DNA of 64,000 bases, taken from the NCBI GenBank assembly GCA_000004695.1, contig CM000151.3:3648001-3712000 (forward strand), read 5' to 3'. The position numbers and the translations under genes were made by a program. The notes beneath the pieces are model-generated. The model was not told where the DNA came from and made no database searches. It saw only the letters and a program-made list of their open reading frames with translations. The DNA comes from Dictyostelium discoideum. Taxonomy: Eukaryota. Of the stretch, positions 5,221-45,484 are shown one piece after another. Every line of letters starts with the position of its first letter. Within the stretch, counting starts at the first letter, position 1.

Positions 5221-8200
5221 GATGTTATCAAAAGGTAGAGATGTTTCAGAAGCATTTCCTCAAGTTGTAAAGAATGTAATTGTAAAGAATTTAGAGATTA
5301 AGAAATTAGTATACATGTATTTAGTTCATTATGCAGAGAGTCAAAATGATAGTGCATTATTGTCAATTAATACCATTCAAAAGTCATTAAATGATCAAAG
5401 TCAAGTGATTAGAGCATCAGCATTGAGAGTTATGTCATCAATTCGTGTTATTGATATCATTGAAGTGATTATATTGGCAATTGAGAAATCTGTTAAGGAT
5501 ACATCACCATTTGTTAGAAAGGCCGCTGCTTTTGCAATTGCAAAAGTACATAAATTGGATTGTGATAAACAAGAGCCATTAATCGACCTATTGGAAATAC
5601 TCTTAAATGATACAAGTACAATGGTATTAGGTGCTGCTATCGTCGCTTTCAATGAACTTTGTCCACAACGTTTTGATCTCCTTCATCAACATTATAGAAA
5701 AATTTGTCAATTATTAGCTGATTTCGATGAATGGTCACAAGTAATCGTACTTGATATTCTTACAAAATATGCAAGATCACAATTTAGATGTCCTGATTCA
5801 ACAATGGTAATTATTAAAAAATAAATATATTAATAATTTAATTTTAATTTTGAAAGGTACTAATCTTTTTTTTAAAAAAAATAAATAAATAAATAAATAC
5901 TACCACTACCACTACCACTACCACTACCAGTACCACTACCACTACCACTACCACACCACTACCACTACCACTACCACTACCACTACCACTACCACTACCA
6001 CTACCACTACCACTACCACTACCACTACCACTACCACTACCACTACCACTACCACTACCACTACCACTACCACTACCACTACCACTACCACCATCATACC
6101 ATAATCACTATCACTATCACTATCACTATCACTACCACCATCATACCAGCATCACTACCAATAGTACTACCAATACTAATACTAAATTTAAGAATGATAA
6201 AAATATTAAACAATTTAAAAAGAAATCAAAATCATTTTATTCAGATGAAGAAGATCAAGAAGATGATGAACCAGAAAATAGTTTATATAAAAAGAAACCA
6301 TTAGAAAGAGATATGTTTGATTCAAGTGAAGAGATTGATATGGATCATAGATTATTATTAAAATCAACATTACCATTATTACAGAGTAGAAATAATGCAG
6401 TAGTGATGGCAGTAAGTTCATTGTATTTCTATTGTGCACCATCGATTGAAGCACAAAAAGTTGGTAAATCATTAGTTCGTATTTTACGTAGTGGACCAGA
6501 AGTACAATACATTACATTGACCAACATTTCCACTATGGTAACATTGAGACCATCAATGTTTGAACCTCATTTATCAGAGTTTTTCATTCATTCATCTGAT
6601 CCAGAGTATAGCATCAAATTGAAATTAGAGATATTGACTCGTTTAGCAACACCTGAAAATATTGGTAAAATCTTGAAAGAGTTCAAAGAGTATGTAAAGA
6701 ATGAAGATAAGAAATTCGTTGCAGCCACAATTCAAGCGATTGGCTCCTGCGCCTCTACAGTACCAGATGTAACCGAATCATGTATCTATGGTTTAATGTC
6801 CCTCCTATCCAATCAATCAACTGTTGTAGTTGCAGAGAGTGTAATTGTTTTAAAAAGATTATTACAATTGAATGCAACAAATGAAAAACTTGAGAAATTA
6901 GAAAAAGAAAAAGAAAAAGAAAAAGATGTCAAAGAAAATCAATCAACCATTTCAAAACATTCATCATCAAATAATTCAATTAAATATGATAATATAATTT
7001 TACATTTATCAAAACTATTAGATACACTTCAAGTACCAAGTGCACGTGCATCAATCGTTTGGGTAATTGGTGAATATTGCTATCGTGTACCATTGGTTGC
7101 ACCAGATGTATTTAGAAAATTAGTTAAATCATTCTCTGATGAACATGAATCTGTTAAATTGGAAACCTTAAATTTAGGTTCAAAATTATATGTTCAATTC
7201 ACTGATAATAATAGTACTACCACTACTGATAATAGTATACCAAATGAATTTAAAAATGAAAGAACTAAAGAAAAGATCACCTTAATGTTTCAATATGTTT
7301 TAAATTTAGCAAAATTCGATCAAAACTATGATATTAGAGATAATAGTAGAATGTTAAAACATTTCTATTTCAATACTGAGAATACTCAATCCATCAATAG
7401 TAATATCAAACAAATCGTTATCAATCAAAAACCAATTCCAACTGAAACTTCAATAAGTGAAGATAGACAACGTTTTACACTTGGTTCATTATCACATATC
7501 GTTAATCATACTGCTTTAGGTTACACCGCATTACCTGATTTCCCTGATGTTGCCCCTGATCCATCAGTTAGAGAACCAATTCAACGTTGGATTCCAAATC
7601 AACAATCACAACAACAACAACACCAACAACAACAATTAAATAATATTTTCGTTGATACTCCATTTTATTCTGATGAGGAAGAAGAAGATGAGGAGGAGTA
7701 TGATGAGGAGGAAGAGGAAGAAGAATATGAAGAACAAAATGAATATGAAGATTTCTTTGGTGAAGAAAAGAAAAATAAAAAGAAAAATAGAAAACAACAA
7801 AACTATGATGAAGATGAATATAATCAAGATATTGATGATGGTGAATATGATGGTGAAGGTGAAGTTCAAGCAGAGGATGAAGATGATTTCGATGAATTAT
7901 TTGGTATAACTAATGACGATAACAATCAAACCGCTAATGGTATTGGTGGTGGTGGTAGTGGTGAGGAAGAAATGGATAAATTTGATTTTGAAAATTATAT
8001 AAACTCCACTACCAAATCTGTAAAGAAAATATTATTAAAACCAACAATTAGTGGTGGATTAAGTATTGATTATTGTTTCATTAGAATCAGAGATAATGAA
8101 GAATTTTCATGTCAACCACGTTATAATATCATTCAATTAAATATAAAGAATCAATCTGATGAAACTTTCACCGATATCTCTATCATTAATAAAAATTTAA

Positions 8201-16881: not shown

Positions 16882-19419
16882 TTATAGAGCATCAGAATTT
16901 GAATCTAATTCAACAGATTGACTGTCTCCATTTTCATTTTCCTGTCTAGTTTCATATTCCATATTTGAGGAAGCTTTTACTGAAATATTATTTGTAGTTG
17001 AAGAGTTATTAGAATTTGAAGATTTTGCAGTTGTTGTTGCATTTGTGAATTGTTCAATCTTTTGTCCAATGAATACAACGAAATAGTTATATTTCCAAAT
17101 TTGAAGGGTTTTCTTGGAAATACCATAAATGATAAATGCATAAACACCAAAAACTCTAATACTGTAAATAAAATAACCTAATCCAGTAATATCTGGGGCC
17201 TTTAATAGACAATCATTGGTGGAAGTACTTGTTAAAAGACATAGTGCATAAGATGGTATGGAATCGGTATAAACGTGCATATGATTATTAATCCATTGAT
17301 CATAAATAAATAAATATAAAAGACAAGAAAAATACATAATTAAACTAATAATTGGTTTTGCTTCCATTTTCAATACTTTAAATCTAGATTCTTTTGTTGA
17401 TTGGACATTACCAGATACAATCTTTTTTTATTTTTTTATTTTTTATTTTTTCAAAACATTAATAAATATAAAAAAAAAGTGAATTTCTAATAAAATAAAT
17501 ACTTACAACATAAATTTCTCTCATTAAAAGAATTAAAAATACACCACCTAAACATAAAAATATACCCATTGGCAACCAAAATGCAAACCTTCTATAGTTA
17601 AAAGTTGTTAACCAACAAAATGGATTTGCTGGTCCACCTGAATATTCATTCTTTGATATTGACACAATTGGTGGTATCCATGCTATAATTAATGATGCTA
17701 CTAAATAATAAATAAATCTATCTTTTTGTTTTTTTCCAACTATAATTTAAATATTTAAAATAAATTATATTTTATTATTTTTAGAGAAAACAATAATTAA
17801 TAATAAATAATTAATAATAATTAATAATAATTAGTAATAGTTAATAATAGTTAATAATAGCTAATAATAATTATAATTAATATAACTAATAAATAATTAA
17901 TAATAATTAATAATAAAATAATAATTTACCTTGGAAAATTGTAAACCATACTTCAAAAGAGAGTACACACCACCATTGAACTACTAAAAGTGATGATCCA
18001 TGTAAAAGAAATCCTAATTTTTAAATTTGATTAGTTAAAATAAAATAAATATATAAGGTTATTTATTTTTTTTTTTCTATAAAAAAAATTTACCTGTTGC
18101 AACACACATCCTATCTATATATGAAGCAAAACGTCCATCTTCTGGACATAATGTATTTTCAGTCCCATTAAAGGTCATTAATGCACCAGAAAATGCTTGA
18201 AGGAAAATACTGGATAACAACATAACATTGATTTTATCGAATCTTGAAACTTTTGGGTTAATAATTCCCAATGTAATTACTAAAAATAATGTTAATATAC
18301 ATGATAAAATTGATAATACATCTGATAATCTATATATATTCCTCCATTGATTTGCATAATATCTTTATAAGTTAATAAAATATATTGTGAAAATAAATTT
18401 ATTATTAATATAATGTAATTGGGGAGAGAGAGTTATAAAAAAAATTAAAAGTATATTAAAATAATAAAAAAAATACAGACAATGGTGCAGGACATCCCAC
18501 TACACAAGTTGTATTTGTAGATGGGAATATATAACCTATTGATTTATCATGAATTTCATCAGTTGAAACATGATAAACTAAAGGTTCAAAACATTGTTGA
18601 ATTGATGTATTTTGAGAATTTGCAATAAGATCTGTGTTTTCACATGTATTTGTATAGCTTAAACTATCAATTTGATAGGTGGTTGTATTTTTTGGAAATA
18701 CTGAATAAGAAATATTTTCAAATGTATATTTAGTTGCGCAACTTAACCTAGATGTTGAAATTTGACATGATGTTGTCATATTTAAACAATTGTTATAACA
18801 AGGTAAAATTGGATATGCATAGGTTACTTTTGAAACTGGATCTGTATATTTTTCACATTCTGGAAAAAGCTAAAAATAAAAATAAAAAAATAAAAAAAAG
18901 TAATTAATAAATGTGAGATATAAATAGAAAAAAAAAAGAAAATTTAATTACTTACAAAAGCACACAGTAAAGCAAAAGTACGAGGATTTTTACAAGATTC
19001 GAATGATTTATAGAAATTAATATATTGACGAACTAAATTACCTTGTGCTTGAATAGCTTCTTGACTTGATGTTGAGTTTATATAAATACTATCTTTTTTT
19101 TTTTTTTTTTTTTTTTTTACACAAAGATTTAAAACATATAAAAAAATTTATAAAAATAAAGAAAATTAATAAAAAAAAAAACTAACAACATGGATTTGAT
19201 AAAGAGCCATCCCATAATAAAAAAATAAAAAAAAATAAACTACTAACTTGGATTTGATAAAAAGCCATCACATAACTGGATCCCTGGACTATCACCCCTA
19301 TATTTTTGACATGTGGCACCTTTATCTAGTGGAAAGTATTGAGATTTAGCAACGTCACCGAAATATAAAATAATAAAAAAAATATAGATAATTGGTAAAA
19401 GATTTTTATTTGAGACCAT
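16882..19419 (-). CDS. Frizzled/Smoothened-like 7TM receptor (fsl family) with an N-terminal cysteine-rich Fz domain, about 607 aa. Seven exons: 19248..19419, 18956..19092, 18481..18869, 18094..18362, 17930..18013, 17507..17739, 16882..17421.
   Basis: A signal peptide, then a CRD with conserved Cys spacing (CQKYRGDSPGIQLCDGF, CKNPRTFALLCAF, PECEKY...CYNNC). Seven predicted TM helices. The C-terminal KTLQIW matches the Frizzled KTxxxW motif. It is clearly paralogous to the 42459..44641 gene, residue for residue across exon junctions. Phases close to 1824 nt in total. One donor is the non-consensus GTCTGT, chosen because it restores the paralog alignment CPAPL|YYANQW versus NPVPLYTNEQW. Confidence 0.7.
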
Positions 19420-41098: not shown

Positions 41099-41681
41099 TT
41101 AATTTTGTTTTTATTACAAAATAAAGTATTTTTCTTTTTTTTTTTACAACCATTTTCAATTCTTTTAAAATTATATATTCGACTTTTTAAAGACAAAAAA
41201 CCATTTAAAAGTGAAGATCCATTATTGAATAATGAAGATCCATTATTCAATACAGAGGATCCAATAATTTTAATTATTTGGCAAGAGGAAGTGTTTTGTA
41301 AGTAAATAATTATAAAAATAAATTATGTATTACAAATTAATAACTTTTATTAAGACCAAACAATTATAAATTCTTTTTAGGGCAATTTTTTAAATCATTT
41401 AAAGACAGATAAGTTAGAGAAATAACAATTGATTTGTTATGTATTTGTAGTCTTTGAAGTTTTGAATCAATTTATGGATAATGAAGGTCTGGATAATTTG
41501 CAACGCCACGTCCAAAATGGTGGGATCATTTTCTCTTACCAAGTTTATAGAAATATAAATTCAATACGAGAAGGTGAATAGTATACTCAAGTTGATGTCC
41601 ACTATGAAAATTTAAATAATAGAAATAAAAATAATAAAAACAATATTTTAAAATAAATCTTGGTAACCAAAACTAAAAATT

Positions 41682-41720
<39 letters not shown>

Positions 41721-41755
41721 CTATAAAAAACACTCGTATTTAATACGACACAAGA

Positions 41756-41850
41756 AATTTAAACAAGCACCCCAAGTTAAATTAATATGTGAGGATTTTT
41801 TTTTTTTTTTTTTTACATATTAATTTAACTTGGGGTGCTTGTTTGAATTT
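41756..41850. repeat. Perfect 30-bp inverted repeat (AAACAAGCACCCCAAGTTAAATTAATATGT and ACATATTAATTTAACTTGGGGTGCTTGTTT) separated by a 24-nt GAGGA(T)19 spacer. It would form a hairpin as RNA or a cruciform as DNA.
   Basis: Read directly from the sequence. It lies in intergenic DNA between the SD-repeat gene and the second fsl gene. A smaller palindrome, cgtatttaatacg, lies just upstream at 41734-41746. Confidence 0.85.
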
Positions 41851-42006
41851 TTTGTCCCTTTGTATTGAAAAAATAATAATAATCATTAGTGATGTTAAAC
41901 ACAACTAATGATTTTTTTTTTTAATATTAAAGAATTTCTTGGTTTTATTTTTTTTTTTTTTTAATCATATTTTTTTTATTCATATTTTAATTTTTTTATT
42001 GATTTG

Positions 42007-44641: not shown

Positions 44642-44760
44642 TAATAATAATAATAAAAAAAAAAAAGAAAAAAAAAAAAAAAAAAAAAATTTTGTTAAAT
44701 TAAATTATCAAAGAATTTTAATTTTAAAATATAGTGTTGTTATTATTATTATTATTATTA

Positions 44761-44832
<72 letters not shown>

Positions 44833-45063
44833 TATTATTATTATTATTTTAATTGATTAATAAGTGTTTATCCATTTTTAATTAGTTTTATTTATGAAGT
44901 TTAATTTTAAAATGTAGTATTATTTATTTATTTATTTTTTTTTTTTTATATGCAGTTTTAAATATGTTGGTATTTAAAATTAAAATTGTAATTAATTATA
45001 TGAATTGGTCAAAGGATATTATATTTGGAAGCACTGATTCTGGTAACTTAAGTTTACATGTTG

Positions 45064-45111
<48 letters not shown>

Positions 45112-45162
45112 ATAATAATAATTATAATAATGCATGTGAGTTTTAAAATGGTCTCTATTATT

Positions 45163-45345
45163 CCACTAATTTTTATATTGTGGTGCCTTTATACTATTAC
45201 AACACCGTTATTCCTCTGTTAGAGGTGCCATTGTTTTACATTTTATATTACCAGAGGAATAATAGTGTTGTTATATAAAATATAAAACAATGACACCTCT
45301 AACAGAGGAATAACGGAGAGTAATATAAAATATAAAGAGTTTCTA
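45163..45345. repeat. Compound inverted-repeat element. Two 44-bp arms (CCGTTATTCCTCTGTTAGAGGTGCCATTGTTTTACATTTTATAT and its reverse complement with 2 mismatches) flank a 26-bp spacer that itself contains a third partial copy (CAGAGGAATAAT).
   Basis: Read directly from the sequence at 45215-45326. It is notably less AT-rich than its surroundings and lies between the second fsl gene and the TFIP11 gene. It could be MITE-like, the terminal inverted repeat of a DNA transposon, or a structured ncRNA. Confidence 0.75.
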
Positions 45346-45450
45346 TTTTATTATAATTTATCTATATATTATATTCAATCTTTTAAGAAAAGCGCACTTA
45401 TGGGAAAAGAATAAAAAAATACGAAACTAGGACCGTTACCAAAAAAAAAA

Positions 45451-45484
<34 letters not shown>

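Follow-up and report, generated by a model that had tools for sequence, protein, structure and literature searches.

What does a long, nested inverted repeat in an intergenic spacer represent: the termini of a transposable element, a gene for a structured RNA, or a rearrangement of sequence that was already there? The question is raised by a 64-kb stretch of Dictyostelium discoideum DNA (hereafter, the window), which is extremely AT-rich overall and probably corresponds to the duplicated segment of AX4 chromosome 2. A first-pass annotation of the window had described a compound foldback upstream of the TFIP11 gene and had likened it either to Tdd or foldback-type transposon termini or to a structured RNA gene. 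On the basis of the repeat structure and a comparison with related assemblies, we propose, with a probability of roughly 60%, that the palindrome is a junction between oppositely oriented units of a 50-bp minisatellite, produced by a lineage-specific local inversion that is probably neutral and serves no dedicated function. The structural part of this reading is much firmer than the part that denies a function.

Results

Genomic Setting of the Element

The element lies in an intergenic spacer of 970 bp, which extends from the stop codon of an fsl-like gene (44641) to the ATG of a TFIP11/STIP homologue (45612), in agreement with the location first given for it. Both genes are on the plus strand. 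In a protein search the TFIP11/STIP-like ORF matched D. discoideum proteins at 100% identity; the gene next to it is DDB_G0272606/DDB_G0274037. The island of repeats is situated 200 to 470 bp upstream of the TFIP11 ATG and, as had been observed, is richer in GC than its surroundings (0.31 compared with 0.06 to 0.20 in the rest of the spacer). For the two short ORFs over the element (54 and 32 aa), no record was found in other assemblies or transcripts, and a search with the neighbouring 285-aa protein added no further assembly to those compared below.

Two further repeats occur in the same spacer, namely a (TTA)n microsatellite of ~110 bp (44738 to 44850) and a local duplication whose copies (44714 to 44738 and 44897 to 44921) stand 183 bp apart. 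Both are mostly missing from the D. discoideum assembly GCA_054859385.1 and from D. citrinum, which indicates that the spacer between the fsl-like gene and TFIP11 had several independent expansions.

A Long Palindrome without a Second Copy in the Sequences Searched

A repeat search identified inverted arms of 47 nt (45205 to 45251 and 45270 to 45316) that are 94% complementary and have 18 nt between them, and a separate scan called 44-nt arms that differ at 2 positions and enclose 24 nt. The arms of 44 bp with 2 mismatches in the first-pass annotation were thus recovered at the same place (44 to 47 nt, with 2 to 3 mismatches, depending on the call), but the spacer between the 44-nt arms measures 24 nt instead of the 26 bp reported. 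A nested inverted repeat of 27 nt (45195 to 45221 and 45249 to 45275, 85%) was also detected, and the palindrome as a whole (45195 to 45325, 131 bp) is self-complementary at 83% over the 132 columns of a self-alignment.

The 23-mer core of the arms occurs at only these two places in the 64 kb, where none would be expected. The element has nothing longer than 12 nt in common with the rest of the window, and this ruled out the inverted duplication of a nearby target gene as its origin. It has no sequence in common with the palindrome at 41.75 kb (placed at 41.7 kb in the first-pass annotation, which had also judged the two to be unlike). A second copy was found neither in the window nor in ~70 kb of related D. 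discoideum, D. citrinum, and D. purpureum loci. Searches with the 20-mer core returned 0 matches in viral contigs and 6 in metagenomes, all of the latter being 20-nt coincidences without extension in unrelated, low-GC (~30%) aquatic contigs.

The RNA fold prediction that had been recommended as a check placed the hairpin beyond every shuffled sequence on both strands. A segment of 251 nt reached z scores of -8.6 (plus) and -11.2 (minus), and the 153-nt extended hairpin -12.1 (plus) and -16.9 (minus), with no shuffle as good in either case. The plus-strand hairpin has a predicted energy of -65.8 kcal/mol, and the minus-strand fold is better by 12.7 kcal/mol because both arm mismatches become G:U pairs there.

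The Palindrome Is Composed of 50-bp Repeat Units

Alignment of the element with itself and with the locus in GCA_054859385.1 (hereafter L010) resolved it into units of a 50-bp minisatellite with the consensus TACAACACCGTTATTCCTCTGTTAGAGGTGTCATTGTTTTATATTTTATA; the coordinates of the parts are collected in table 1. The degenerate TTATTCC copies that had been noticed just upstream of the arms belong to a degenerate unit 0, which is also present in L010. In the window this unit carries TTATTCC (at 45158) and GGTGCC motifs, and its left edge holds a remnant, AAAATGGTCTCT, of a flanking inverted repeat known from L010. In the unit alignment the direct unit covers 45195 to 45248. The inverted block, read on the minus strand, is made up of a unit tail followed by a full unit and then by 21 nt of a partial one. 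From CCGTTATTCC to TTTTATAT its reverse complement matches the L010 consensus unit exactly, and so does the reverse-complemented right arm. The nested third reverse copy described earlier inside the spacer proved to be a partial inverted unit, and it can pair alternatively with 45199 to 45218. Once ~1.7 units stand opposite to the preceding unit, the 47-nt arms, the partial-unit spacer, and the weaker upstream copies all follow automatically.

Table 1.— Parts of the repeat island and candidate signals beside it (positions in the window).
Feature	Position	Strand	Basis
Degenerate copy of the 50-bp repeat (unit 0)	45146..45194	+	Direct repeats; aligns with L010 unit 0
One full direct unit (TATTACAACACCGTTATTCCTCTGTTAGAGGTGCCATTGTTTTACATTTTATAT plus TAC), supplies the left arm	45195..45251	+	Column-for-column alignment with L010 units 1-4
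Inverted block of ~1.7 units, supplies the right arm and the spacer	45252..~45336	-	Unit alignment and self-alignment
Spacer (loop) of the large palindrome, a partial inverted unit holding CAGAGGAATAAT	45252..45269		Nested repeat; unit alignment
13-bp mini-palindrome CCTCTGTTAGAGG, present in every unit	45214..45226		Sequence
Second copy of the mini-palindrome, CCTCTAACAGAGG	45297..45309		Sequence
Extended hairpin of a putative minus-strand transcript	45186..45338	-	Predicted fold: 44 consecutive pairs including 2 G:U, -78.5 kcal/mol, -0.51 kcal/mol/nt
Conserved block with exact DUSE consensus TCCCATAA (45405..45398)	45354..45417	-	Motif scan and L010 alignment
T31-G-T10 run, then GG	45441..45482 (to 45439 with GG)	-	Sequence; 124 nt upstream of the 47-bp stem

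The left breakpoint of the inverted block falls at 45251/45252. Position 45252 is equivalent to the loop G (the loop has 3 nt) in the mini-palindrome that each unit contains (5 copies in L010, 2 in the window, and 2 in the assembly GCA_054883475.1). The right breakpoint is ambiguous between ~45314 and 45336, because the unit tail and the flank have ATATAAA-type sequence in common. Tandem Repeats Finder (TRF) found no tandem array in the window, since the copies stand in opposite orientation.

Both mismatches between the arms reflect variation among units; TTTTACATTTT is found again in L010 unit 3 and GGTGCC in unit 0 of the window. The TTTTACATTTT mismatch need not be decay since the inversion, and because the mismatches already exist as unit variants they are ill suited to dating the event or to arguing that base pairing is under selection. 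A strand argument drawn from the two G:U-compatible mismatches was downgraded for the same reason, one being a variant among the L010 units and the other being present in unit 0 of the window.

The Same Site in Other Assemblies

The orthologous locus was taken, via the TFIP11 protein, from three assemblies: D. citrinum (L001), D. discoideum GCA_054883475.1 (L002), and D. discoideum GCA_054859385.1 (L010). L002 contains an identical 336-bp structure, and its presence in this independent assembly indicates that the palindrome is not an assembly artefact. With 12 SNPs between window and L002 in 14.8 kb, the conservation of these two sequences has no power to show constraint. L010 differs from the window by ~2-3% mismatches in coding sequence, and in intergenic sequence by 12.2% mismatches in aligned positions together with 23% gap columns. 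Although GCA_054859385.1 is labelled D. discoideum, it is this divergent over the whole 14.8-kb locus; it looks like a deeply diverged lineage or a cryptic species and is useful for comparing non-coding DNA.

Both flanks of the element align between L010 and the window. At this site L010 (5452 to 5694) has a tandem repeat with a period of 50, 4.9 copies, and 92% matches, in which all units run head-to-tail and no palindrome is present; one degenerate copy, unit 0, precedes the array. Because the same site in L010 holds direct units throughout, the inverted arrangement in the window is most likely a local rearrangement and not a pair of element termini. The L010 array is bracketed by a 28-nt inverted repeat (5385 to 5413 and 5694 to 5722) whose score was reached by 5 of 2000 shuffles, and which would close a putative minus-strand transcript into a panhandle. 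In the window the bracketing repeat is eroded, its best score being reached by 133 of 2000 shuffles.

In D. citrinum, TFIP11 is 85% identical and the gene order is the same, and the intergenic spacer measures only 250 bp. The island, the 50-bp unit, and the conserved block beside them (table 1) are all absent from this syntenic spacer and from the D. purpureum locus. The minisatellite island is specific to D. discoideum and richer in GC than its surroundings.

Candidate Signals on the Minus Strand

In dictyostelids the DUSE, [AT]CCCA[CT]AA, has been described as a putative promoter element that precedes snRNA and Class I RNA genes by ~60 nt (PMC7919456, PMC3188802). Its consensus, WCCCAYAA, has only 3 matches in the 64 kb, one of them in coding DNA. 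The match beside the island is a candidate promoter element whose end lies 59 nt from the base of the extended hairpin (45338) and 60 to 65 nt from the edge of the array. The 64 nt from the DUSE to the array contain 1 mismatch between the window and L010, compared with the intergenic background of 12.2% mismatches and 23% gap columns, and the two sequences diverge at once beyond the motif. Across ~3.3 kb of intergenic alignment, 39 of 3288 windows of 60 nt are as conserved as this block. These make up five blocks, and the other four adjoin gene starts or ends.

A T-rich run followed by G has been reported as the pri-miRNA/Pol II start motif in D. discoideum (PMC6161686), and a run that resembles it is present upstream of the palindrome on the minus strand (table 1). 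T-runs of at least 20 nt number 100 in the 64 kb (~1 per 640 bp), and ~17% of them are followed by G. They are so common that the T31-G-T10 motif is weak evidence for a transcription start.

Comparison with Known RNA Genes

At the gathering score, Rfam returned no family for the whole 64-kb window. When a 2.5-kb region was searched at E values up to 10, only sub-threshold models of perfect-hairpin miRNAs appeared, on both strands (score/gathering threshold: mir-3910, 60.6/95; mir-4679, 49.3/88; MIR6445, 43.4/100; mir-513, 42.3/72.1). Matches of this kind, seen on either strand and due to pairing alone, say only that a long hairpin is present. ARAGORN detected no tRNA. No match to the element was found in the tables and supplements of the published D. 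discoideum miRNA lists (Liao 2018; Meier 2016; Edelbroek 2024), in which the single 8-mer match belongs to the hairpin of another species. Full-text literature searches with 12- to 14-mers of the element returned nothing relevant, and 10-mers matched only unrelated primers. For stip, fsl, and the DDB_G identifiers of the neighbouring genes, the lncRNA supplements of Rosengarten 2017 have no entry.

The folding energy of the predicted minus-strand hairpin (-78.5 kcal/mol over 153 nt) is below the limit of -0.2 kcal/mol/nt used for D. discoideum miRNAs. Genes of this class are also defined by a discrete 5p/3p small-RNA duplex that has 3' overhangs and depends on DrnB/RbdB, and the published candidate tables contain no entry for the element. 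The element resembles the intergenic miRNA genes of this species (ddi-mir-1176, -1177, -7097, and others; PMC6161686), which are intergenic hairpins of 110 to 150 nt with ~-0.5 kcal/mol/nt and a T-rich run followed by G located 100 to 300 nt upstream on the better-folding strand. Unlike them, it is not among the published loci, it has a perfect 44-bp duplex where miRNA stems are imperfect, and its hairpin is absent from another D. discoideum lineage (L010). A similar mixture was observed for the DUSE-dependent noncoding RNA genes, that is, snRNAs and Class I and II RNAs (PMC7919456, PMC3188802). Two features are in common, an exact motif ~60 nt upstream of a structured or repeated part and the conservation between lineages of this motif and of the sequence leading to the array. 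However, Class I RNAs are defined as RNAs of 42 to 65 nt with a terminal stem of the 5' and 3' ends and the 11-nt motif CCTTACAGCAA; the element has neither this stem nor this motif in its sequence, it has no Rfam family and no Rfam Class I match even at E values up to 10, and its putative product would be 150 to 330 nt of repeat units.

Discussion

A Probable Inversion within a Minisatellite

Minisatellites (VNTRs) consist of units of 10 to 100 bp arranged head-to-tail, and their arrays vary among lineages. In L010 the island consists of such an array, and in the window of one direct and ~1.7 inverted units. The window and L002 agree with each other, L010 differs from them in the number and orientation of units, and D. 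citrinum has none. The homogenised units and the intergenic position are also typical of minisatellites, whereas the partial inversion that yields a 131-bp near-palindrome, and the 13-bp mini-palindrome in each unit at which the left breakpoint lies, set the window array apart from them.

We propose that the ancestral array was wholly direct and that an internal segment was inverted in the lineage of the window. Tandem arrays grow in direct orientation, and for this reason the direct array was taken as the older state and the inversion as the derived one, a polarity that is limited by the fact that D. citrinum has neither state. Either template switching or recombination between the short inverted repeats of every unit (CCTCT/AGAGG) may have produced the inversion, and a left breakpoint in the loop of the mini-palindrome fits either route. 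Re-inverting the block from 45252 to ~45336 gives no clean direct array, because a few nucleotides are missing at each junction; together with the ambiguous right breakpoint, this indicates that the event was not a simple cut-and-flip.

Under an origin by inversion, the hairpin would be a by-product of minisatellite instability with no dedicated function. In DNA the palindrome may extrude, either as a cruciform or as a hairpin, and a read-through RNA would form a perfect duplex of 44 bp. The hairpin is absent from L010 and thus not conserved, which argues against a role that depends on the structure; "no function" for the hairpin is nevertheless a default and not a result. With regard to the island, the conserved DUSE block at its canonical distance and the elevated GC content suggest that some part of it is probably functional.

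Hairpins created by template-switch mutations have reportedly been described by Löytynoja and co-workers, and inverted duplication in plants is said to have been put forward by Allen et al. in 2004, each as a proposed route to de novo miRNA genes. Our element is similar in being a long, near-perfect inverted repeat that was made from neighbouring sequence, is specific to a lineage, and is younger than the species split. It differs in that its source was a tandem array and not a target gene, and in that no small RNAs or targets are known for it. More generally, a nested foldback in an AT-rich spacer can come from a flipped part of a minisatellite and need not be the end of a transposon or an RNA gene, a case that calls for caution in genome scans.

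Alternative Explanations

The structured RNA gene of the first-pass annotation was not established by these comparisons, although a conserved, promoter-like block of the DUSE type and a T-run followed by G lie upstream on the minus strand. It would take its most explicit form as a young hairpin-RNA (hpRNA or proto-miRNA) locus on that strand, with the minisatellite inversion as its birth event. In the window lineage, a transcript that began either ~60 nt past the DUSE (near 45338) or at position 45440, the G that follows the T-run, and that ran through the repeat units would fold into the 153-nt hairpin with its perfect 44-bp stem and could be cut by the Dicer-like proteins DrnA or DrnB into small RNAs. 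We regard this as possible but doubtful. The distance of 59 nt between an exact minus-strand DUSE, one of three in 64 kb, and the hairpin base is consistent with it, as is the rank of the DUSE-to-array block among the five best-conserved intergenic blocks relative to L010; the DUSE match, however, was noticed only after the fact, and the block may just as well act in the promoter of TFIP11, at a distance of 200 bp. The T31-G-T10 run followed by GG on the same strand resembles the start site of pri-miRNAs, but T-runs are ubiquitous. Likewise, the conversion of both arm mismatches to G:U pairs, with its gain of 12.7 kcal/mol, follows from the unit variants and has a chance probability of ~0.25. 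Both the length and the energy of -0.51 kcal/mol/nt are within the range of the listed ddi-miRNA hairpins, and the sub-threshold Rfam matches are all to perfect-hairpin miRNA models. These points are countered by several others: no Rfam family and no tRNA were detected; the sequence appears neither in the table of DrnB-dependent miRNAs of Liao 2018 nor in the supplementary data of Edelbroek 2024 and Meier 2016; Pol III would terminate at TTTT runs within the 5' arm; and L010 has no hairpin, hence no conserved structure under selection. Stated as a gene model, the island would be an unannotated noncoding gene specific to D. discoideum, in which a DUSE-type promoter directs a minus-strand RNA of 50-nt units that an inversion recently turned into a perfect 44-bp hairpin; judged from sequence features, this model seems unlikely to us. 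If true, it would provide a snapshot of the birth of a hairpin RNA or miRNA from a minisatellite, polymorphic within one species complex. Should the minus strand be transcribed, a long perfect duplex would be present in the DUSE-driven transcript of one lineage and absent from that of another lineage of the same species, and the two would form a natural before-and-after pair for the origin of Dicer substrates and miRNA genes in Amoebozoa.

The likeness to Tdd or foldback transposon termini holds for the nested foldback of sub-copies, but the transposon reading fails the tests that were run on it. A non-autonomous DNA transposon of the foldback or MITE type, with terminal inverted repeats around an internal minisatellite and inserted after the split from D. 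citrinum, would explain why the island is absent from that species and why the L010 array is bracketed by a 28-nt inverted repeat that few shuffles match (5/2000). The element is also short, noncoding, near genes, and richer in GC than its flanks, and, like those of foldback elements, its arms consist of tandem sub-repeats. However, the search for target-site duplications that had been called for revealed none at any plausible boundary, neither at the ends of the bracketing repeat in L010 nor at any boundary of the palindrome in the window. The window and the compared loci hold no second copy, and viral contigs and metagenomes yielded no match beyond the chance 20-mers. D. citrinum does not offer a clean empty site, as its whole spacer differs. 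The bracketing repeat is eroded in the window (133/2000 shuffles), and the 47-nt arms are absent from L010, where the units are direct, so they are not termini: inverted termini would be present in every carrier, and L010 has only the separate 28-nt repeat. In addition, the element totals ~200 to 340 bp, compared with kilobases for foldback (FB) transposons. We therefore consider an origin by transposition very unlikely. We assign a slightly lower place, as a highly improbable reading, to a cis-regulatory array in which 13-bp dyads (CCTCT-N3-AGAGG) 50 bp apart, together with the conserved GCGCACTTATGGGAAAAG block, act on the TFIP11 promoter. Such a dyad could bind a dimeric DNA-binding protein, and the orientation of the units would be irrelevant, which would explain why both arrangements persist. 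Of all parts of the unit the dyad varies least, in either lineage (5 copies in L010, 2 in the window), the island lies 200 to 470 bp upstream of the TFIP11 ATG, and the adjacent block is strongly conserved. Against these features, repeat units homogenise by concerted evolution without selection, the copy number differs 2.5-fold between the lineages, and D. citrinum has the same gene layout without such an array. Moreover, we know of no Dictyostelium factor tied to the CCTCT-N3-AGAGG dyad.

Other Features of the Window and Its Counterparts

In GCA_054883475.1 (L002, 1 to 5049), the deposited gene calls fuse the two tandem fsl-like genes into one product of 1307 aa. The genes are separate, with ~630 to 665 aa each, in L010 (1 to 1322 and 2931 to 5087) and in D. 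citrinum L001 (478 to 2695 and 3490 to 5751), and the merged product probably reflects an error of annotation. Between the two fsl-like genes, their spacer contains a protein-like reading frame on the plus strand (41429 to 41581, ...FEVLNQFMDNEGLDNLQRHVQNGGIIFSYQVYRNINSIREGE*), directly after a sequence resembling an intron acceptor (...tttgtag). The surrounding region (41257 to 41644) aligns with L010 at 85 to 88% identity and has few gaps, a level unusually high for an intergenic region, and the frame may be an unannotated small exon or gene.

A further exact DUSE match, TCCCATAA, was found at 19210 on the plus strand, inside a duplicated 26-nt motif (GGATTTGATAAAGAGCCATCCCATAA and GGATTTGATAAAAAGCCATCACATAA, 57 nt apart, 19193 to 19275). 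A GC-richer stretch follows, and the 95 nt that begin ~60 nt downstream have no excess structure (z = +1.8).

The window also contains a second long hairpin at 41750 to 41855 on the plus strand (L010 2361 to 2466), with 41-nt arms, 2 mismatches, and a T-rich loop of 24 nt, ~30 nt downstream of a 38-nt T-run. Neither the D. citrinum spacer nor the miRNA supplements searched contain it. Unlike the palindrome upstream of TFIP11, this hairpin is conserved in L010 (energies of -62.3 and -50.2 kcal/mol and z scores of -15 and -12 for the two sequences). One compensatory change from C-G to A-T was observed between the two sequences, and both G:U pairs of the window are G:C in L010. We consider this hairpin a better candidate for a real hairpin-RNA gene than the palindrome at 45195 to 45325.
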